IMG/VR virus record: IMGVR_UViG_3300025316_001101
Strand: one strand, 5' to 3'
Source: a virus
Lineage: Duplodnaviria; Caudoviricetes
DNA length: 64,000 nt
Part shown: positions 1-23,803 of the stretch, in pieces
Layout: the number at the start of each line of letters is the position of its first letter
How positions within the stretch are numbered: the first letter of the stretch is position 1
Made by a program: the position numbers and the translations under genes
Notes under the pieces: model-generated
Database searches by the model: none
Told to the model about the DNA's origin: nothing
What the model saw: the letters and a program-made list of their open reading frames with translations, nothing else

Positions 1-1
1 T

Positions 2-334
2 ACAAAAAGCACATGTAATTGTCTTAGGATACATCTTTCTGTTTAACACCATCCGCTCTGATCGTAGTTCTTGATCTAATTCCCAATGCAATTCTTGATG
101 ACACGTAGCACACAACAATAAACACTTATCCACTTCTGCTTTTTGTTTTTCAAAGGACAATGATTGACTGCTAATCCCAAAGTCTTTTTGTTCTGGGTCT
201 TTGTGGTGGAAATGATATGCGGGCGGAATTCTTTTGTTATACCCACATGTCTCACACTTGCCGCCTTTGTAATCCACTAGTTTTAACTTTGTCCTATTTC
301 TCCAATTCATTACTGCCATAGATCTTTTATTCAT
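2..334 (-). CDS. HNH endonuclease (partial, runs off left edge)
   Basis: Manual translation MNKRSMAVMNWRNRTKLKLVDYKGGKCETCGY...HFHHKDP...LCATCHQELH; CxxC and HNH-like motifs; not in ORF track because truncated. Confidence 0.75.
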   Translation of the reverse strand, partial: MNKRSMAVMNWRNRTKLKLVDYKGGKCETCGYNKRIPPAYHFHHKDPEQKDFGISSQSLSFEKQKAEVDKCLLLCATCHQELHWELDQELRSERMVLNRKMYPKTITCAFC

Positions 335-390
335 ACCCACACTCCTTATATTAACAACCATTGTAATATATAGGAGTGTAGGTTCAAAAT

Positions 391-422
391 AAAAAGCCCA
401 CGGAATAAATTCCGTGGGCTTT
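391..422 (-). terminator. Rho-independent terminator closing tRNA cluster 1
   Basis: Stem AAAGCCCACGGAA/TTCCGTGGGCTTT followed by U-tract on minus strand. Confidence 0.8.
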
Positions 423-424
423 AG

Positions 425-495
425 CTAGTCCCGGAGGATTTGAACCTCCACTAAGACAGTCAAAGTGTCTTGTGCTACCGTTACACTAGGGACTA
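425..495 (-). tRNA. tRNA-Gln(TTG)
   Basis: Cloverleaf; anticodon arm AGACA-CTTTGAC-TGTCT; T-loop TTCAAAT. Confidence 0.9.
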
Positions 496-499
496 AAAG

Positions 500-584
500 C
501 TGTAGGGGTCAGAATCGAACTGACGTAGGCTTCCGCCACACGTGATTAACAGTCACGCCGAAGTACCAACACTTCATCCCTACA
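500..584 (-). tRNA. tRNA-Asn(GTT) with long variable arm
   Basis: Acceptor TGTAGGG/CCCTACA, G73; CGTGA-CTGTTAA-TCACG; 16-nt variable arm TGTGGCGGAAGCCTAC. Confidence 0.85.
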
Positions 585-589
585 ATAAG

Positions 590-664
590 CGCCCTCGGTG
601 GGATTCGAACCCACGACCTTTAGCTTCGGAGGCTAACGCTCTCATTCCACTGAGCTACAAGGGC
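590..664 (-). tRNA. tRNA-Arg(CCG)
   Basis: TTAGC-CTCCGAA-GCTAA anticodon arm; canonical D and T arms. Confidence 0.95.
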
Positions 665-749
665 CAGCCGGATGCTCTACCATTGAGCCACACTGGAATG
701 AATAAAAAAGCTCCAGCGGAAGGACTCGAACCTTCAACTGTCCGGTTAA
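665..749 (-). tRNA. Circularly permuted tRNA-Asn(GTT): 3' half (749-711) precedes 5' half (697-665)
   Basis: Halves complement each other: acceptor TCCAGTG/CGCTGGA+G73, anticodon stem TCCGG/CCGGA, loop CTG|TTAA; 13-nt spacer CTTTTTTATTCAT. Confidence 0.7.
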
Positions 750-750
750 G

Positions 751-823
751 TACGCCCTCGGGGAGTCGAACCCCGAACCTCGACATTAAGAGTGTCTTGC
801 TCTGCCAATTGAGCTAAGGACGC
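751..823 (-). tRNA. tRNA-Lys(CTT)
   Basis: GACA-CTCTTAA-TGTC; acceptor GCGTCCT/AGGGCGT, A73. Confidence 0.9.
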
Positions 824-839
824 ATATAAATTTTTCAAG

Positions 840-912
840 CTATCCCGCAAGGTAACGCTCCTTGTCCCTCAGATTCAAATTCTGATGTGCAAAACTTCTA
901 CACCACGGGATA
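840..912 (-). tRNA. tRNA-Gln(TTG), atypical T-loop
   Basis: TCAGA-ATTTGAA-TCTGA; acceptor TATCCCG/CGGGATA; T-loop AGCGTTA. Confidence 0.8.
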
Positions 913-921
913 TCATTCAAG

Positions 922-994
922 CTGGGCAACTACGATTTGCACGTAGCACTCTAAGTTCAGAGCTTAGTGTGATTGCTGAATTCACCATTGCCCA
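922..994 (-). tRNA. tRNA-Gln(CTG)
   Basis: CTAAG-CTCTGAA-CTTAG; acceptor TGGGCAA/TTGCCCA. Confidence 0.85.
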
Positions 995-1009
995 ATATAT
1001 TTTTTCAAG

Positions 1010-1136
1010 CTGCCGAGAGTCGATTCGAACGACTTCCTTTTGATTAACAGTCAATTGATGTAGTTCCAACTGCATGCGTTGCCGCCAAGGGTCGCTGAAA
1101 CTTTCATTTTTTATGCTACCATTACACCACTCGGCA
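1010..1136 (-). tRNA. tRNA-Asn(GTT)-like RNA with ~55-nt Y-RNA (Ro-binding)-type module between D arm and anticodon arm
   Basis: Acceptor TGCCGAG/CTCGGCA G73, D arm, TTGA-CTGTTAA-TCAA and T arm all present; insert shares GTTTCAGCG..CCTTG and ATGYAGTTGGAACTACATC with the YrlA-like unit at 33937-34065. Confidence 0.7.
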
Positions 1137-1154
1137 ATGTTTATTTCAATCCTT

Positions 1155-1352
1155 TCATGGTCCCACCTCGATTACCAAAGCAGTTCCATTGTGCTTAACA
1201 GATTCAACACAAAGTTCTTCGGGATGACCCCACACATCAAGTTCACCTTCGTGAACTTGATGTGTGCCGATTACTTCGGTGCCATCGGGCACATCGGCAA
1301 TCAAAGCTCGTAATTCTTCAACCTTCATTTCTTCACCTTCTTCTTGTACCAT
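1155..1352 (-). CDS. Hypothetical protein (65 aa)
   Basis: ORF track; acidic, coupled to upstream ORF. Confidence 0.6.
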   Translation of the reverse strand: MVQEEGEEMKVEELRALIADVPDGTEVIGTHQVHEGELDVWGHPEELCVESVKHNGTALVIEVGP

Positions 1353-1519
1353 TCTTTAGGTTTATGGGGCGGGAGCATAAAAACTCTCTCGCCCGTTGGC
1401 TGCACTACAACACGTACTACAAACCTACGACCGCATGTGGGGCAACGCACTCTTGTAGGGCGTTTAGCCGCACCGGCCGGAATTAGCGGTTTGTTGTCGA
1501 AACTACATGTGGCGTTCAT
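1325..1519 (-). CDS. Small zinc-ribbon-like protein
   Basis: CPTCGRRF motif; start at MNATC. Confidence 0.55.
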   Translation of the reverse strand: MNATCSFDNKPLIPAGAAKRPTRVRCPTCGRRFVVRVVVQPTGERVFMLPPHKPKEWYKKKVKK

Positions 1520-1533
1520 GTTTTTAACTCCAA

Positions 1534-1609
1534 GTGAGACCACGGGGATTTGAACCCACGACCTACCTCGTTAAGAGCGAGGAATGCTGCCAGTAACACC
1601 TTGATCCCA
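1534..1609 (-). tRNA. tRNA-Lys(CTT)
   Basis: CCTCG-CTCTTAA-CGAGG; acceptor TGGGATC/GGTCTCA. Confidence 0.85.
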
Positions 1610-1617
1610 TTAATGTT

Positions 1618-1752
1618 TTATGCATCCCAACCATGTTCTGTCCAGCGAAACGTACCAGATCCAAAAGCGATGTGTGGAAAACACATTATTTCTTCAACCT
1701 CCTCAATTACTTCTTCAACTTCCTCAATTAGCTCATCATAATCATCTTTCAT
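1618..1752 (-). CDS. Small acidic protein (44 aa, MKDDYDELIEEVEEVIEEVEEIMCFPHIAFG...)
   Basis: Manual translation; GGAG RBS; below ORF-track cutoff. Confidence 0.5.
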   Translation of the reverse strand: MKDDYDELIEEVEEVIEEVEEIMCFPHIAFGSGTFRWTEHGWDA

Positions 1753-1765
1753 CTTTATCTCCCAA

Positions 1766-1802
1766 TAAAAAAGCCTCCCCCAGGCGTTGCCTGGGGGAGG
1801 CT
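1766..1802 (-). terminator. Intrinsic terminator (attenuator 1)
   Basis: 14-bp stem AGCCTCCCCCAGGC/GCCTGGGGGAGGCT plus U6. Confidence 0.9.
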
Positions 1803-1863
1803 CAATCTTTGTACGGAATAGACCATACCCCAGGCTGCGCCCTGGAGTTGATTTCCAGAGCGG

Positions 1864-1899
1864 TTAAGGCTTCTGATTATTCCGTTGCTTACGAGTCAT
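1864..1899 (-). CDS. Leader peptide 1 (MTRKQRNNQKP)
   Basis: GAGGA RBS 8 nt upstream; codons match downstream tRNA anticodons; lies between promoter and terminator. Confidence 0.8.
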   Translation of the reverse strand: MTRKQRNNQKP

Positions 1900-1922
1900 T
1901 GTTTTAATCCTCACTGTATCTA

Positions 1923-1954
1923 TATTATACGCTGAAATTTTCGTTTGTCAAGTC
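1923..1954 (-). promoter_or_regulatory. sigma70-type promoter (TTGACA-16-TATAAT), exact 32-bp copy at 23695-23726
   Basis: Direct sequence match to consensus and duplication. Confidence 0.85.
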
Positions 1955-2004
1955 AGAATCTTTCGAATCTACCGTATAGACGCATTGGTTCAGGAAAAGG
2001 TTCA

Positions 2005-2457
2005 CTAACTGCTCCAAATTTCGTCTGGGGCCTCGAAAAGCTTTTCAACCTCTTCCCGGCTGTTGTGCTGGGGGCAAAGGTTCCAGCATCGCATCTGAAT
2101 TTCGGCATATAACTCTGTCCATTCCCCGCAGACTTCACATTTGTGCTGAACATTCTCCCAGGCACCATTCAGGTGGAGTGCATGATCGAGGAGGTATGCC
2201 CGGTAGCAGGCTTGGGCTTCTTGGGCCGTATCGTGGCCGTCACCGTGGTGCTTGTCTTTGGTGGCCTCATTTGCTGCTCGGTAGCTTTCACTGATCCAAT
2301 TATCGTTGGGCAACTCATGATAAACCGAACAATATCCCACTGGCCATATCTGGCCATCATTCATGCAAGTATAATCGAATTTTCCATCTTTTCTTTGTCT
2401 GGCTTTGAAGTAGTTCATATTTTTCTCCCTAAATGATAAATAGTAATATGAAGACAT
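2005..2457 (-). CDS. Hypothetical protein with C-terminal CxxC..C
   Basis: ORF track; probable start at MNYFK. Confidence 0.65.
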   Translation of the reverse strand: MSSYYYLSFREKNMNYFKARQRKDGKFDYTCMNDGQIWPVGYCSVYHELPNDNWISESYRAANEATKDKHHGDGHDTAQEAQACYRAYLLDHALHLNGAWENVQHKCEVCGEWTELYAEIQMRCWNLCPQHNSREEVEKLFEAPDEIWSS

Positions 2458-3017
2458 TTCAAGAATGGTTAATCGAAGTTCATCCCGAATCCGTAGATGA
2501 AGGATTTCTTAGTAAAACTCTAGGCGGATTAGGCATGGCTGCGGCATTAGCCACTGGAAGTGGGATGTCTGCACAGGGAGCCGAACCTGTAGCCAAGCCA
2601 GCTATTGCGGCTGAGGCAGGAGCTTCATTCCATGATCCATTTACTAATCAATGGGTCACAGTCAAAGACAGTGAAACATTTTCTTGGAAAGATGGAGTGA
2701 TGGCTAAAGTGATTCCAGAAAAAGGAAATCCAAACATCATTCATGTGAAATTTTTGGTAATGGACGGTTCTCCCATAGCTCAAATTTTAGAAGACAATCC
2801 TAGCAATATGGCTCAGGTGTTTGGCGGTAGAATTAAAGCTTCTCACATGTTAGTATTACAACCGCCTCCTGGTTATATGGGCATGGTGAAGTCTGTGCAA
2901 TTTGAAGGTCGCACAGAAAAAGAAGTGAATGGCAAGCCGGGCAAGATTTATAAATTCACCAGCACATCGCAAAAAATGACGCCAAAGCAAGCGATGATGA
3001 TGCAAAGACAAAACTAA
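2448..3017 (+). CDS. Putative virion-packaged protein (N-terminus MKTFQEWLIE)
   Basis: TAAATA 5 nt upstream of ATG; resembles T4 internal-protein capsid-targeting sequence. Confidence 0.6.
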   Translation: MKTFQEWLIEVHPESVDEGFLSKTLGGLGMAAALATGSGMSAQGAEPVAKPAIAAEAGASFHDPFTNQWVTVKDSETFSWKDGVMAKVIPEKGNPNIIHVKFLVMDGSPIAQILEDNPSNMAQVFGGRIKASHMLVLQPPPGYMGMVKSVQFEGRTEKEVNGKPGKIYKFTSTSQKMTPKQAMMMQRQN

Positions 3018-3244
3018 GTTCCGGCTACTTTTTCCATATCTGCTTTGCGATCACTACTAATATCTGAGTGTGATCGTGGCGTCCAACCAGACCCCTTAAA
3101 GATAAGACCGACACCACCGCTTATAAGCCTTTGCAATTTATCCTTGCCGCATTTTGGACAAGTCTTTTCCGGTTCGGCTTTAATACTATGAAAAAATTCA
3201 TGTATTGATTTGCAATCGCTGCATTGATAATCATATGTTGGCAT
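3014..3244 (-). CDS. FmdB-family zinc-ribbon protein
   Basis: MPTYDYQCSDC...CPKCG...LIS...FKGSGW. Confidence 0.85.
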   Translation of the reverse strand: MPTYDYQCSDCKSIHEFFHSIKAEPEKTCPKCGKDKLQRLISGGVGLIFKGSGWTPRSHSDISSDRKADMEKVAGT

Positions 3245-3258
3245 GAATTAAGATAGTA

Positions 3259-3426
3259 TTATTTTGGCTTTTCAATTCCCAAGGAGGCCAAATAATCTTT
3301 AAGTTCTTTAGCCTCTTTGGGAGCCAATGCGACAATACGATCACCCAGATCTTGGATGTAATCATCAAATCCTGTAACTATTCTTGGATTTTTAGGCGGC
3401 GGAGCCTGAATCACTTGAGTTTCCAT
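3259..3426 (-). CDS. 55-aa protein resembling the N-terminal dimerisation domain of ribosomal protein bL12
   Basis: Manual translation ...IQDLGDRIVALAPKEAKELKDYLASLGIEKPK; AGGA RBS; similarity is from recall of bL12 N-termini, not from a search. Confidence 0.5.
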   Translation of the reverse strand: METQVIQAPPPKNPRIVTGFDDYIQDLGDRIVALAPKEAKELKDYLASLGIEKPK

Positions 3427-3670
3427 ATTGTTCCTTCCAATTTAGATCGGCCAGATCCTCTTGACGGGTCTGATCCTTCCAACATCTTCTTGGATTACCG
3501 CACATATAGCAAGAGCAAGATTTTAGATGATCTGCTCGTTTGGCGGCTGCGTCTTCAAATTCTTGATTTCTCGGTTCACCCAATCGCCAACTATTGTTAA
3601 GGCGATACACTCTTCGAGCCTTGGCCTTCATTCGTTGCGAATCTAATCGTCGTTCTGCTCGTTTTGACAT
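3392..3670 (-). CDS. Basic hypothetical protein with CSCxxCGNPR motif
   Basis: ORF track. Confidence 0.65.
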   Translation of the reverse strand: MSKRAERRLDSQRMKAKARRVYRLNNSWRLGEPRNQEFEDAAAKRADHLKSCSCYMCGNPRRCWKDQTRQEDLADLNWKEQYGNSSDSGSAA

Positions 3671-3750
3671 TCAATTCTCCTTCTTCTATATTTATGCATA
3701 TGATCATATTTTTTGGGGGATAATTTGGGGGCAGCATACTATATAACTAC

Positions 3751-4155
3751 ATGAAAAGAAAATGCTCTACTTGCGGAAAAGAAAAAGAACTCAATGCTGA
3801 TAATTTTAGGCCAAAACTAGATCGTCCTGGAAAATCAAGACTATCTTACTCCTGTCGCCCATGCCAACAAAAACGACAAAGAAACATGCGGCAAATAAAA
3901 AAATCTATAGTGTTTACAAAACTCTCCGAACAACTTGGTTCACTCTGCCCCATTTGTGGGTCGCCAGCGACCGCCATAGATCACAATCACCAAACAAATA
4001 AAATAAGAGGATTGTTATGCATGTCATGCAATACGGGATTGGGATGTTTTGCGGATAATATTGACAACCTACGACGTGCGATTGTTTATCTAAAAAACAA
4101 TTGTGAGTTAGGTGAATGGGAAGAAAAAACAGGCGGTAAACTGTTTTCTACCTGA
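3751..4155 (+). CDS. Endonuclease VII-family (His-Me finger) nuclease
   Basis: CPICG...IDHNH...RGLLCMSCNTGLG...AIVYL. Confidence 0.85.
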   Translation: MKRKCSTCGKEKELNADNFRPKLDRPGKSRLSYSCRPCQQKRQRNMRQIKKSIVFTKLSEQLGSLCPICGSPATAIDHNHQTNKIRGLLCMSCNTGLGCFADNIDNLRRAIVYLKNNCELGEWEEKTGGKLFST

Positions 4156-4196
4156 TCACGATTTTCTATTGTACTCCAAACCTCTCTGATTGTAAA

Positions 4197-4616
4197 CTAG
4201 TAATCGCTTCTCATAGTAAATCTGGGGGTAATGACCAATGTGCTACCATTCTGCATGTGCCTCACTTCGGAAAATGCCTCCACCCACAAAAGCTTACCGG
4301 ACGTACTTCCTACTACAAAATAACCATAAAGGTCATCTCCAGTTTCTCCCGCTAACCAATCCAATGTAGACGAATAAGTAGATTGTGCTACCCCATTTGA
4401 ATTCAAAGCTGCGTCCCCCCAACCTGATCGCAACAATGTTTTTCGCTCATACCCGGTAAAATCAGCTTCCGAATAATCATCTACTGTATCCGTCAGCATC
4501 GGGATGTTATTGTTATTGTAAAGTCGTACCGATAAAGTCTCATCATCCACCAATGCTATTTTAAGACATGTGTTTAATAAAACCAGTTGACCCTCGGTTG
4601 GAATAATTAAAGTCAT
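4197..4616 (-). CDS. Putative virion structural protein
   Basis: Beta-rich; LYNNN..DYSEADFTGY pattern typical of tail-associated proteins. Confidence 0.55.
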   Translation of the reverse strand: MTLIIPTEGQLVLLNTCLKIALVDDETLSVRLYNNNNIPMLTDTVDDYSEADFTGYERKTLLRSGWGDAALNSNGVAQSTYSSTLDWLAGETGDDLYGYFVVGSTSGKLLWVEAFSEVRHMQNGSTLVITPRFTMRSDY

Positions 4617-4669
4617 AACAACTCCTGAAAAAATCTACTAGTATCTAGTATATATCGATAGGAGAAATT

Positions 4670-4819
4670 ATGGAAACCAAAGAAGTAAAAGCCGAAACCA
4701 CAGTGCATCCCGATGGACGCATCGATGTTAACATATTGGTGCCCGGACTTACAATGCAACCAAAATTTAACTTTGGTAACCAAGAACCCTCAGAAGAGCA
4801 AAATCCCAAACAGGAATAA
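4670..4819 (+). CDS. Small hypothetical protein (49 aa)
   Basis: Manual translation METKEVKAETTVHPDGRIDVNILVPG...; GGAG RBS. Confidence 0.5.
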   Translation: METKEVKAETTVHPDGRIDVNILVPGLTMQPKFNFGNQEPSEEQNPKQE

Positions 4820-4831
4820 TAGGAGCGTATT

Positions 4832-5254
4832 ATGGCTAGTGGCGTTTATAATATTTTCAAAGCTGAAATAATGAAAGGCACTTTTGCTTTACTGACTGAT
4901 GAGATTCGAGTCGCTTTAATGACTTCTTCACACAGCTTCAATGCAACACATACTACATGGTCCAATGTTTCTACTAATGAAATAACAGGTGCCACGGCCG
5001 TAGGATATGACACCCCTGGTTTTGTACTAGCATCCGCTGCCGTTACTGTGGATGGTGGAACCAGAGGTAAATTTACCGGTGCTGGCATTACTTGGTCTAC
5101 ATCTACCATTACCGCACGACATATAGTTCTACATGATGTGACGGCTGGAAACAGACTTATTTGCAGCATAGATCTAAGTACAGACTACATTTCATCGGCT
5201 GGCAATTTCCAAATTACTTGGGATGCTTCTAATGGTATTTTAACTATTACTTAA
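4832..5254 (+). CDS. Putative tail-associated structural protein
   Basis: Thr/Gly-rich beta protein ending FQITWDASNGILTIT. Confidence 0.6.
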   Translation: MASGVYNIFKAEIMKGTFALLTDEIRVALMTSSHSFNATHTTWSNVSTNEITGATAVGYDTPGFVLASAAVTVDGGTRGKFTGAGITWSTSTITARHIVLHDVTAGNRLICSIDLSTDYISSAGNFQITWDASNGILTIT

Positions 5255-8127
5255 TTATCAAGTTGTTTCCAAGCAGTGCCATTATAGCCATAAAAGTGTT
5301 TATCGCCAGTATTGAAATATAAATCGCCAGCAACTCCTGATGGGTCTCCGCTATAACTACCTATTGTTAATAGATTATTGATTTTCATGTCTCCGCTTAC
5401 CAAAAGCTTTCCGGTATTATAATCTTGCGACATAATCTGCAATGTAGAAGCTGGATCTATATAAATTTTACTCAAATCGGATGTAAGCGACATTGACCCC
5501 ACCGCTCCAGCCGTTAAAATGTTTACATCTTTATTGCCACATCGTAGCATAGTTGCTGTTGCATTAATCATGGGAGTAGACAATGGACTAGCATCAGTCT
5601 GTATTCCAAATTCATAAGTAGTAACCATATTCCCCATGAAAAATACTGTTGGACTACCATTTAACTGCCAACATGTCTGACTTGGAGCACCCATTCTTGC
5701 TAACACATTATTTGTAAATATGCCCACCACTCCATTACCAGATAGTATCGAAAATCCGCCTAAGCTTACGCTCATTAACTTAGCATTATTCACAGTAGTG
5801 GTTACAAAATGAATCCCATCCGTTGATAAATTCAAAAATAATGGTATGTTTGCTGTAACATCACAAGAGGCATCATTGACAGTTAACGTGTTTGAAGCTC
5901 CAGACACATCATAAGCATCAATTGCTACGCCACCTACGCAAGAGCCCCAATCGATTCCAATTAGTCTTAACAAACCACCTGTGTATCGCACCAATCCCTT
6001 AGCTGCTCCTAAAATAGAAGCGCCTATTAACGCACAATTCTGTATTGCCGTTATGGCTGATGTAGTAAACAAATATTCATTTAACACATTGCTTGTATTT
6101 AATTGAATTCTAACTGACGTTTTATATGAAGCCCCAACAATATACACGTAATCCTTTAATATCATAGAATCTTCTACAAATACACCTGGACCAATGGATA
6201 TTGTATATCTGTGTGTTGGTCCAGCGTCATTAATGCTATCTAAAGCACTTTTAACCGAACTATAATCTCCGCCTACCTTTGCCACTATTATGATGTGATC
6301 ATCTTTTCCAGTAATGATAAAATAATCCGACTCAACGAGATGTTTACCAGCCTCCGAATATCCTGTAAATGTTCCGACTGCTGTGCTGTTTTCTATATGA
6401 AAATCCATTGTGTTATCATCGAAATCTACAGCCTCCATTCTAGCATATGGACTTACACCCGTGGTATCCACATAAACACCCTTACTCCAATTATTGATTT
6501 TCATGCTACTGCCAGCAAAATAACCACCTTCTCGAACCCATACTCCATATGATTGTGGAGCACCCGATGAATTGCCACTTATTGTAGCTCCTTGCATTGT
6601 CAAGACAGCTTTGGGACCATCCACCACTAGTCCAGATTCCGGCACCACAGACTGATACTGTATAAAAGTGTTTTCTGCATCTATTACTGACTCGTAATCA
6701 ACACCCTCCACTCGTATAGCATGCTCTTCACAGTCTACAAAATCTACATATTCTAAATACAAATATGAATCTACACTCGGAGAATTCATCTCAATTCCAA
6801 TGGCACAAGTGTCGAAACTACATTTGTGTATGGTAATCCAATCGCCTATATCCTCCAAATATACACCAGATTGATTTGCACCAGCATTTGCAATAGTTAT
6901 AAACATCAAACCACTACGATTACTAAGCTGAAACACATGATGAGTATCCGCATCCGGTTGAATCACAGTCATATCTTGTTGCCAACCCACAATATAAACA
7001 AACGAAGGCACCTGTAACAAAGGCTCAACAAAAGTTCCTGGACCTACATTGATTAAATATTTGTTGTCTTCGGCTGCATCTCCTAATGTGACAATATATG
7101 CAATGGCATCTGCTAGCGTCTTAAAATCGCCACCTTTTTTAGCCACCACTACAATGTTGGTATCTCTGTTAGCAACGAAAAAATCACAAGGTTTACACAC
7201 AGAATATTTCAACCGATCAGCACTTCCCACAAATTGACCGGTGGCTGTTAAATTATCTACCAAAAAATCCATTGTGTTGTCATCGAAATCTACAGATTGA
7301 AGCTTTAAGTATGGAGTGGTGCCAACATTGTCAACATACGCACCTATAGCCCAATCTTCTATTCTGGCAGACGATACATTAATATAACCACCATTTGTCA
7401 CCCTAATGGCATTACCCACCATGTCTTCTGAACCATATAGTCCCAATCCTTGAAAATTGGCTTCTGTTTTATTGCCACTTATTAAAATCACATCTACTGG
7501 GGGATCTCCGTCCGTATAGTCCACATACACATTTTCAGCGTTAAAAAAACATTCGTCCAATCCCAAATTTGTACATTTAATAGCGTGTTGTGTGCAGTTG
7601 GAAAAATCCACATACTCCAAATACATTGATGATGTAAAGCTTTGCGTTTCATGCAAAACTCCAATATAACAATCTTGAATAGTGACCTTGTGCATAACAG
7701 TGAAATAGCCACAGTCATGAGAATAAATAGCAGCATATCCTGATCCCGCTCCCTGTAGTGTCAAATCTACCATTCCTGCCCTATTAGACAGTTTTACAAT
7801 ATGATGATTCACATCATCCGGCTCGATTATTACAGCATCAATATGCGTACCTTTTAAGTATACAAATGGCGGCAAAACCAATTCTGGTTCTGTATATGTT
7901 CCAGGACTAATCCTTATTACGTATCGCCTAGCAGAGGAGCTATCTGTAATGTGGGCTATGGCCGCTGCAATTGTGATAAATTCTCCTCCATCTTTCTGCA
8001 CATAAAGAACATTCGGCCCCTCTCCCGTTTCGGAAATGGATAAATCTTCCCGCAGTGCCTCAAGGATTCTTGGATACCATTGTTGCGGATTAAAACAACC
8101 AAGTTCTGCTTCGGTCGGTGTTGACAT
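5251..8127 (-). CDS. Beta-helix (pectin-lyase-like) tailspike or depolymerase-like protein with three repeated modules
   Basis: Three copies of V(Q/A)K.GG.F.TI..A(I/L)...Y.I.I.PG.(Y/F).E; start refined to MSTPTE by RBS. Confidence 0.65.
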   Translation of the reverse strand: MSTPTEAELGCFNPQQWYPRILEALREDLSISETGEGPNVLYVQKDGGEFITIAAAIAHITDSSSARRYVIRISPGTYTEPELVLPPFVYLKGTHIDAVIIEPDDVNHHIVKLSNRAGMVDLTLQGAGSGYAAIYSHDCGYFTVMHKVTIQDCYIGVLHETQSFTSSMYLEYVDFSNCTQHAIKCTNLGLDECFFNAENVYVDYTDGDPPVDVILISGNKTEANFQGLGLYGSEDMVGNAIRVTNGGYINVSSARIEDWAIGAYVDNVGTTPYLKLQSVDFDDNTMDFLVDNLTATGQFVGSADRLKYSVCKPCDFFVANRDTNIVVVAKKGGDFKTLADAIAYIVTLGDAAEDNKYLINVGPGTFVEPLLQVPSFVYIVGWQQDMTVIQPDADTHHVFQLSNRSGLMFITIANAGANQSGVYLEDIGDWITIHKCSFDTCAIGIEMNSPSVDSYLYLEYVDFVDCEEHAIRVEGVDYESVIDAENTFIQYQSVVPESGLVVDGPKAVLTMQGATISGNSSGAPQSYGVWVREGGYFAGSSMKINNWSKGVYVDTTGVSPYARMEAVDFDDNTMDFHIENSTAVGTFTGYSEAGKHLVESDYFIITGKDDHIIIVAKVGGDYSSVKSALDSINDAGPTHRYTISIGPGVFVEDSMILKDYVYIVGASYKTSVRIQLNTSNVLNEYLFTTSAITAIQNCALIGASILGAAKGLVRYTGGLLRLIGIDWGSCVGGVAIDAYDVSGASNTLTVNDASCDVTANIPLFLNLSTDGIHFVTTTVNNAKLMSVSLGGFSILSGNGVVGIFTNNVLARMGAPSQTCWQLNGSPTVFFMGNMVTTYEFGIQTDASPLSTPMINATATMLRCGNKDVNILTAGAVGSMSLTSDLSKIYIDPASTLQIMSQDYNTGKLLVSGDMKINNLLTIGSYSGDPSGVAGDLYFNTGDKHFYGYNGTAWKQLDN

Positions 8128-23235: not shown

Positions 23236-23268
23236 CAAAAAACCCCGGTTCTTCGAACCGGGGTTTTT
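23236..23268 (-). terminator. Intrinsic terminator (attenuator 2)
   Basis: Stem AAAAACCCCGGTTC/GAACCGGGGTTTTT with U-tract. Confidence 0.9.
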
Positions 23269-23317
23269 CCTAAAACTTATACCGGTTCGGGCTGTCCCGA
23301 CCGGCGTATGCCTTGGT

Positions 23318-23395
23318 TCAGGACGTAGTGTGGCTAATATGACCGTGTTTCGGCCAGCATTTACCACTACGTCTTGTAATCAAAGCAAATAACAT
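23318..23395 (-). CDS. Leader peptide 2 (MLFALITRRSGKCWPKHGHISHTTS)
   Basis: AAAGGA RBS; enriched in codons read by cluster-2 tRNAs; followed by competing hairpins and terminator. Confidence 0.75.
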   Translation of the reverse strand: MLFALITRRSGKCWPKHGHISHTTS

Positions 23396-23413: not shown

Positions 23414-23441
23414 TTAGACGCACCAAGCGTCCAAAAGGTTC
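23414..23441 (-). promoter_or_regulatory. ECF-sigma-like promoter (GAACCT-16-GTCTAA)
   Basis: Matches GAACTT-N16-GTCTAA ECF consensus, ~19 nt upstream of leader 2. Confidence 0.4.
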
Positions 23442-23504
23442 ACTAAAAAATGGGCCGGTCATATAGACACGGCCAACCTCTCACCAAGAGAGGGGAGTCG
23501 TAAG

Positions 23505-23694: not shown

Positions 23695-23726
23695 TATTAT
23701 ACGCTGAAATTTTCGTTTGTCAAGTC
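23695..23726 (-). promoter_or_regulatory. sigma70-type promoter, identical 32-bp copy of 1923-1954
   Basis: TTGACA-16-TATAAT. Confidence 0.85.
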
Positions 23727-23803
23727 GGAATTTTTCAGAAGCTCATCGGAATTTCTCTGCCATCCAATTTCAACGAAGAAATCAACGGTAATATATAATT
23801 TCA

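Follow-up and report, generated by a model that had tools for sequence, protein, structure and literature searches.

In pheMST-like attenuators, a leader peptide senses the supply of charged tRNA and thereby regulates part of the decoding machinery. In phage lambda, the pR'-6S-tR' region consists of a strong promoter, a short terminated 6S RNA, and genes past the terminator. Large phages carry tens of tRNA genes, for which the main ideas are compensation for codon usage and escape from tRNA-cleaving defences. The locus described here, termed leader 1, precedes a cluster of phage tRNA genes and resembles the leaders of amino-acid operons (trpL, hisL, leuL, thrL, ilvL, and pheL) in having a promoter-proximal short ORF with regulatory codons and a stop codon beside the first helix segment. 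The likeness to these attenuators extends to mutually exclusive helices, a terminator before the first gene and, in the mechanism proposed below, stalling that would lead to read-through.

The window (the whole stretch of DNA analysed, 64,000 nucleotides) is the minus strand of positions 99025-163024 in a virus record of 259 kb in IMG/VR, which derives from freshwater metagenomes, belongs to a giant phage, and is ~50% complete; tRNA clusters for Leu, Ser, Phe, Tyr, and Cys are missing from it. The record holds 48 tRNA genes plus a tmRNA, and a single strand bears every one of these tRNA genes, between 139 and 230 kb. The parts of leader 1, in window coordinates, are:

1924-1951, minus strand: consensus sigma-70 promoter, with TTGACA at 1951-1946, a 16-nt spacer, and TATAAT at 1929-1924
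1908-1912, minus strand: Shine-Dalgarno site GAGGA, 8 nt 5' of the ATG
1864-1899, minus strand: leader 1 ORF of 11 codons, MTRKQRNNQKP (ATG ACT CGT AAG CAA CGG AAT AAT CAG AAG CCT TAA)
1854-1862, minus strand: segment A, CGCUCUGGA, with core CTCTGGA at 1860-1854, beginning 2 nt past the stop codon; its partner is B
1838-1847, minus strand: segment B, CUCCAGGGCG, with core CTCCAGG at 1847-1841; its partner is A or C
1828-1835, minus strand: segment C, GCCUGGGG (= GCCTGGGG), which pairs with B or, as antiterminator, with the 5' arm of the terminator
1813-1825, minus strand: 3' strand of an outer stem, pairing with ORF codons 5-9 (1885-1874) in the MFE fold of the untranslated full-length RNA
1766-1803, minus strand: intrinsic terminator, with 5' arm 1803-1789, loop AAC, 3' arm 1785-1771, and T6

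An earlier note, made from the letters of this DNA, had described the promoter, the GAGGA ribosome-binding site, and the 11-codon ORF, and all three were recovered on the minus strand where it had placed them. The same holds for the helices A:B, B:C, and C with the terminator 5' arm. The terminator is likewise present, with a stem that measured 15 bp (11 of them G-C pairs), not the 14 bp given there. We therefore consider the observation of leader 1 confirmed as described. With a 5' UTR of 18 nt, a stop codon at ~+54, and a T-tract at ~+150, its dimensions are similar to those of trpL. Leader 1 has a short ORF with a Shine-Dalgarno site and start codon near the promoter, an arrangement conserved in relatives. 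The promoter matches the consensus at 12/12 positions and ranked first among 24 promoter-like sites in 1-6000, and a 37-nt block around it (1923-1959) recurs at 23695-23731 on the minus strand with a 97% match. This second copy directly drives an odd tRNA, in which ARAGORN reads a 4-nt anticodon (cttg); next comes another tRNA-like RNA, whose anticodon loop has CAT, followed by leader 2, an element described below.

Past the terminator of leader 1, the following features are found:

1618-1752, minus strand: first downstream ORF, 44 aa, with a Shine-Dalgarno site and an ATG start ~10 nt past the T-tract
393-1608, minus strand: the putatively controlled unit, ending at a strong terminator (422-393)
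1608-1534, minus strand: tRNA-Lys(CTT), first copy (ARAGORN)
1519-1325 and 1352-1155, minus strand: two small ORFs within the tRNA unit
~1137-1010, minus strand: interrupted Asn(GTT)-like RNA, seen by eye
994-921, minus strand: tRNA-Gln(CTG) (ARAGORN)
912-839, minus strand: tRNA-Gln(TTG), first copy (ARAGORN)
823-750, minus strand: tRNA-Lys(CTT), second copy (ARAGORN)
749-665, minus strand: circularly permuted Asn(GTT), seen by eye
664-589, minus strand: tRNA-Arg(CCG) (ARAGORN)
584-499, minus strand: tRNA-Asn(GTT) (ARAGORN)
495-424, minus strand: tRNA-Gln(TTG), second copy (ARAGORN)

The ARAGORN set behind leader 1 thus comprises Lys(CTT) x2, Gln(TTG) x2, Gln(CTG), Arg(CCG), and Asn(GTT). Three Asn(GTT) genes had been claimed previously along with the other members; the two Lys, two Gln(TTG), Gln(CTG), and Arg genes and one Asn(GTT) were called by ARAGORN, while the other two Asn(GTT) are non-canonical. 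These two, the interrupted and the permuted one, were called by no tRNA finder, and decoding by the several non-canonical tRNAs of the cluster is predicted from sequence. As the 44-aa ORF has its Shine-Dalgarno site and ATG starting ~10 nt after the T-tract, there is no space for a promoter between it and the terminator, and a promoter scan of 1-6000 found no strong promoter between the terminator and the tRNAs. With no promoter of its own past the terminator, the tRNA unit requires read-through for its expression. Leader 1 therefore has an intrinsic terminator between its ORF and the first gene, with no promoter behind it.

The strongest feature of the leader 1 ORF is its codon content. The tRNAs of the cluster comprise five anticodon species, which together read codons 4-10 (AAG CAA CGG AAT AAT CAG AAG); each of the five is represented. 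That seven of the ten post-Met codons match the downstream tRNAs had been noted before; the seven are indeed consecutive, and their number is above chance by codon-usage, shuffle, and frame controls. Genome codon usage predicts 1.2 matches, compared with 7/10 observed (p = 3e-5), and dinucleotide shuffles of the ORF gave a mean of 1.8 (p = 1.5e-4 for the observed 7). The other five frames of the ORF, two forward and three reverse, yielded 0-1/10 matches, and coverage of 5/5 anticodon species had p = 0.006. Across the six frames of the 259-kb record, seven-codon runs of the leader 1 set were detected at 3 loci in 518,046 codon windows. One of these, at genome position 218181, was rejected as an off-frame reading of a membrane-protein gene, and the remaining non-leader run was rejected as a short open frame without leader context. 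Leader 1 is thus enriched in codons cognate to what its operon supplies, in a frame-specific manner, and the match exceeds chance.

Inspection of the few strong terminators inside the tRNA zone located two further units composed of a short ORF and a terminator. These elements, and a motif shared by all three leader loci, are:

23239-23395, minus strand: leader 2, with a 25-codon ORF, MLFALITRRSGKCWPKHGHISHTTS, at 23395-23318 and a terminator at 23267-23239
genome position 198298: leader 3, 37 codons, of which 24/36 match its cluster
window 1995-2008 and 23433-23446, minus strand, and genome position 198249: motif TTAGTGAACCTTTT

Behind leader 2 lie Lys(TTT) x2, Ile(GAT) x2, His(GTG), Gly(GCC), Trp(CCA) x2, and Arg(TCT), and the matching codons in its ORF are ATT x2, AGA, GGT x2, AAA x2, TGG, CAC x2, and CAT. 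This amounts to 11/24 codons and 6/6 anticodon species (p ~1e-4 to 3e-4 against dinucleotide shuffles), compared with 1-5 matches in the other frames. The codon sets of leaders 1 and 2 are disjoint, with AAG as opposed to AAA for Lys and CGG as opposed to AGA for Arg, and cross-matches were at or below expectation (0/24 for leader 2 against cluster 1, and 2/10 for leader 1 against cluster 2). A promoter-like site is located past the leader 2 terminator in the phage genome. The match of leader 3 was discounted because both its ORF and the codons read by its cluster are rich in G+C. With composition controlled for, p was 0.14 (0.06 with Watson-Crick pairs only), and anticodon coverage was 14/17 (p = 0.025). 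Leader 3, being non-significant under composition controls, was accordingly downgraded as a third independent line of support and lends weak support to codon-matching leaders.

The 14-nt motif TTAGTGAACCTTTT has exactly 3 copies in 259 kb, one per leader locus. It is placed in the 5' UTR in leaders 2 and 3 and upstream of the promoter in leader 1, and in the 5' UTRs of leaders 2 and 3 it lies within a longer common block (~35 nt) whose last letters are GTGCGTCTAAGG. The leader ORFs of the phage record all end in stop codons other than TAG (0/3 with TAG). Elsewhere in the record, two amber-suppressor tRNAs (anticodon CTA) are located at genome positions 183724 and 210663 (L005 and L006) and the tmRNA at 84822 (L009); the two CTA tRNAs and the tmRNA possibly reflect TAG recoding late in infection. 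Within the large tRNA zone, single tRNA genes with sigma-70-like promoters directly 5' occur at genome positions 183685, 204373, and 209276, so some tRNAs of the genome are leader-independent.

Relatives of leader 1 were reached via metagenome-contig homologs of the upstream 150-aa gene. Contigs L137, L138, L140, and L142 showed 68% identity in this flanking gene, compared with 82-88% in the leader region, and L162 and L190 represent a close strain in which the terminator differs and a gene on the opposite strand has been inserted. The promoter, the reading frame, the stop codon, and a Shine-Dalgarno site (AAGGA or GAGGA) are retained in the relatives, with start, stop, and frame of the ORF conserved in L162, L190, L137, L138, and L142. 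Codons 4-9 are invariant. The only changes in the ORF are CGT>AGT at codon 3, CCT>CCA at codon 11, and AAG>CAG at codon 10 (L137); they affect non-sensing codons or, in the case of AAG>CAG, exchange one sensing codon for another. All four helices are kept. A U>C change in segment B turns a U-G pair of B:C into C-G, and the 3' strand of the outer stem carries two one-sided changes (G>A and A>G) with pairing kept. Counting that of the window, which two other sequences replace in relatives, the terminator comes in three versions unrelated in sequence, each with 7-8 bp of complementarity to an invariant segment C. The same five anticodon species lie behind the leader in L142 and L190, and all leader 1 relatives represent one tRNA set.

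Leader 2 also has a distant relative, on contig L150, where a 25-codon ORF, MFVTVIISAAGKRWPHKGRITSAP, occupies the same place and the neighbouring protein is 60% identical. The two peptides agree at 7/24 residues. L150 retains ATT/ATC, two AAA, TGG, CAT, and GGT, along with an AGA that sits elsewhere in the ORF; the L150 terminator directly borders the following ORF, behind which lie Lys(TTT) and Ile(GAT). Judged from this pair of sequences, it is codon content and not the peptide that appears to be conserved, as a sensing leader predicts.

Wider searches added little to this set. A blastn comparison of the leader region with 50,697 phage records returned zero matches, and an IMG/VR scan with the flanking protein returned zero relatives. 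The 14-mer of the shared motif had 118 matches in IMG/VR, which were dismissed as chance, none of them having the second half of the motif, while the longer motif had 0 matches there, as did the leader core. A scan of JGI metagenomes with the 18-nt leader core gave 39 matches, among which L162 was the only true leader. Homologs more distantly related to the upstream 150-aa gene (L128, L129, and L132) were set aside for showing no synteny and no leader, as were homologs of the ORF behind leader 2 (P0023 and P0024) for showing no synteny. DNA contigs from four lake metagenomes carried the ORF without a new variant and confirmed the terminator variant of the L162 type. A search of public sequencing runs for the region turned up none of RNA.

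The relatives also bear on the genes surrounding the leader. Between the leader terminator and the tRNAs lies a hot spot for gene insertion, occupied by the 44-aa ORF in the window (1618-1752), by two HNH endonuclease genes in L142 (377-1827), and in L162/L190 by an opposite-strand ORF (L190 157-675) that came with a new terminator. The permuted tRNA-Asn(GTT) consists of a 3' half, a 13-nt linker, and a 5' half, and is wedged between tRNA-Lys and tRNA-Arg. Its order is kept in L142 (2415-2498) and L190 (1676-1772), with compensating changes in the stems, and a permuted tRNA-Gln(TTG) seems to be present at L142 ~2654-2739. In Rfam, the region of the permuted Asn(GTT) had a weak YrlA match only, over 643-772 (E = 0.0012). 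The interrupted Asn(GTT)-like gene has a ~55-nt insert between the D arm and the anticodon arm, and both gene and insert are conserved in L142 (2166-2296) and L190 (1211-1340). The L142 counterpart of tRNA-Lys(CTT), at 2319-2414, has a ~22-nt insertion in the anticodon loop and is reported by ARAGORN as Ala(agc) with an intron. Three of the genes called by ARAGORN, Gln(TTG) at 839-912, Gln(CTG) at 921-994, and Asn(GTT) at 499-584 (all minus strand), went undetected by the Rfam tRNA model at a threshold as loose as E<=1; these genes have unusual T-loops, e.g., TGCAAAT and AGCGTTA. A spacer, AGCTTGAAAAA(A/T)TTATAT, is repeated directly 5' of several tRNA genes (826-841 and 995-1009, minus strand; L142 ~2296-2318) and may be a processing signal.

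The untranslated full-length RNA of leader 1 folds into a rod plus the terminator (MFE fold, z = -5.5). Duplex energies were -16.0 kcal/mol for A:B and -14.1 kcal/mol for B:C, and the terminator duplex reached -34.1 kcal/mol compared with -18 kcal/mol for the antiterminator. Since the terminator is far more stable than the antiterminator, read-through hinges on kinetics; the function of the trp attenuator likewise rests on kinetics, with the terminator outweighing the antiterminator. The nascent transcript, taken as far as the terminator loop, was folded while a 28-nt footprint of the ribosome was stepped through the ORF codon by codon. When the A site lay on any of codons 1-10, A:B formed and C paired with the 5' arm of the terminator (P ~1.0 under constraint folding), leaving 12/15 bases of this arm paired in the antiterminator state. 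With the A site on the stop codon, A was covered, B:C formed, and the 5' arm was free (C:arm P 0.05), and the same state was obtained with the A site on codon 11 (C:arm P 0.32). The switch was stable across footprints of +8 to +16 and was reproduced in the relative L142. The alternation of A:B, B:C, and C with the terminator arm that the earlier note had proposed, and for which it had suggested folding with a footprint at each codon, was thereby reproduced. By constraint folding, leader 1 thus has mutually exclusive helices chosen by ribosome position.

As a control, 29/300 shuffles of the spacer gave the same switch; this ~10% arises because a G-rich spacer tends to pair with a C-rich arm. 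The helix switch alone is therefore weaker evidence for an attenuator than the codon match. Leaders 2 and 3 and L150 have like helices: their first segment coincides in part with the stop codon, and pairings 2:3, 3:4, and 4:5 come after it. Folding under a ribosome mask did not give a clean two-state switch for these three, and, being far less clean, their folding was discarded as support for the switch.

Taken together, leader 1 is most likely a ribosome-mediated attenuator that exerts feedback control over the supply of phage tRNA, a reading to which we give somewhat better than even chances. In this mechanism, the consensus promoter would start a transcript of ~150 nt, and ribosomes would enter the 11-codon ORF while the polymerase is still transcribing. 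A ribosome quickly reaching the stop codon would cover A, so that B:C forms, the 5' arm is left free, the 15-bp terminator folds, and transcription stops. A ribosome lingering on codons 4-10 would instead allow A:B to form and C to sequester the 5' arm, giving read-through that would extend into the 44-aa ORF and the tRNA genes. Translation of the leader 1 ORF, stalling, and the resulting change in read-through are what we infer from the model. As the five tRNA species encoded downstream are those that read the seven sensing codons, the circuit would be one of negative feedback: more phage tRNA would be made when decoding capacity is short for the sensing codons, and the unit would be off when supply is ample.

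The suggestion of an attenuator of the trp/his type thus holds up on the codon match, leader 2, the footprint folding, conservation, and the promoterless next ORF, whereas the trigger that had been attached to it, the loss of host tRNAs, is unsupported. That host tRNA loss through anticodon nucleases sets off the switch is speculation; a shortage could come from cleavage of host tRNAs, from host shut-off, or from a mismatch in codon usage. Plain feedback on tRNA supply fits the data equally well and is the minimal reading. A broader reading may also be considered, in which the genome carries a set of codon-sampling attenuators, one per tRNA unit and each with at least one codon per controlled tRNA species, that would provide per-codon top-up of only those tRNAs in short supply and homeostasis upon host tRNA loss; we regard this as about evenly balanced between true and false.

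Among the alternatives, a factor-dependent antitermination unit similar to lambda pR'-tR', with an incidental micro-ORF and with read-through provided by a phage protein or RNA element, is unlikely, although the most probable of them. The strong promoter, ~150-nt transcript, strong terminator, and promoterless genes reproduce the pR'-6S-tR' layout, the terminator far outweighs the antiterminator in stability, and the untranslated RNA is a stable rod (z = -5.5). Such a unit nonetheless leaves unaccounted for both the frame-specific codon match in two separate leaders and the conservation of codons rather than peptide in L150. Q-type antiterminators (PF06530, PF03589, and PF06323, the last without a working control) were unmatched in the 259-kb record, and, with this record ~50% complete, the lack of a Q-type domain in it is weak negative evidence against this alternative.

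Leader 1 could also be a stand-alone small RNA gene that acts in trans, has its own terminator, and is unrelated to tRNA control. It is a self-contained unit from promoter to terminator with a well-folded RNA, the leader region is more conserved than its neighbours, and attenuator RNAs can double as small RNAs, rnTrpL (PMC6614838) providing a precedent. We consider this quite improbable, however, given that the next ORF begins ~10 nt past the T-tract without a promoter, that no strong promoter belongs to the tRNA cluster itself, that the codon match would go unexplained, and that no Rfam match was found. Held to be just as doubtful is a general sensor of translation capacity, with coupling of the pyrBI type and no specificity for these tRNAs. 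The same structural evidence speaks for it, as in the model any slowing of the ribosome would give read-through, but a general sensor would have no need of matching codons, nor of a different matching set in leader 2. Finally, a chance juxtaposition, in which a short ORF devoid of meaning happens to lie with a promoter-like site and the terminator of the unit upstream, is very unlikely, for while short ORFs and alternative helices are common and ~10% of shuffled spacers switch, the 12/12 promoter is duplicated elsewhere, the codon run is limited to 3 loci among 518,046 windows, and the whole unit is conserved at 82-88% in relatives.

Attenuators for phage or bacterial tRNA clusters, of which the earlier note knew none for phage tRNA arrays, are undescribed in the full-text literature searched, which lay outside subscription journals. 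If the codon-sampling reading is true, this would be, as far as that literature shows, the first case of tRNA genes under leader-peptide attenuation, by which a textbook mechanism would reach a new class of target genes. The phage would then monitor decoding capacity and adjust its own tRNA supply. The leader would furthermore offer a simple reporter for codons that are limiting in infected cells, and the correspondence of leader codons with downstream anticodons would provide a search rule for other tRNA-rich phages.

Compared with known systems, leader 1 differs from amino-acid attenuators in several respects. Those control biosynthetic enzymes, whereas leader 1 heads tRNA genes and small phage ORFs; their leaders have a run of codons for one amino acid, whereas the leader 1 codons comprise five codon types for four amino acids and mirror the downstream anticodons. 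Leader 1 has five segments (A, B, C, and the two terminator arms) as opposed to four, and is phage-encoded, unlike the leaders of amino-acid operons. The Rfam models Trp_leader, His_leader, Leu_leader, and Thr_leader had no match at E<=1 in 1-26000 and none at gathering score across the window; a sub-threshold hit to TeloSII ncR30 on the opposite strand (E = 0.58) was dismissed as chance. Leader 1 would work like the trp, his, leu, and thr families yet belongs to none of them in Rfam. The pheMST system controls a synthetase and responds to one amino acid, whereas leader 1 would control tRNA genes and respond to several isoacceptors at once. T-box riboswitches similarly use a terminator/antiterminator switch that answers to tRNA status, but they bind tRNA directly via a specifier codon, with no translation, whereas leader 1 has an ORF with a Shine-Dalgarno site and ATG; the Rfam T-box model (Stem I, specifier loop, and T-box sequence) had no match at E<=1 in 1-26000 or at gathering score in the whole window. 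Lambda pR'-6S-tR' shares with leader 1 the strong promoter, the short terminated transcript, and the genes past the terminator, but lacks a counterpart to its conserved ORF with matching codons. The class of mechanism, leader-peptide attenuation, is therefore a known one, and what is new is the targeting of tRNA genes and the mixed set of codons that mirrors their anticodons.
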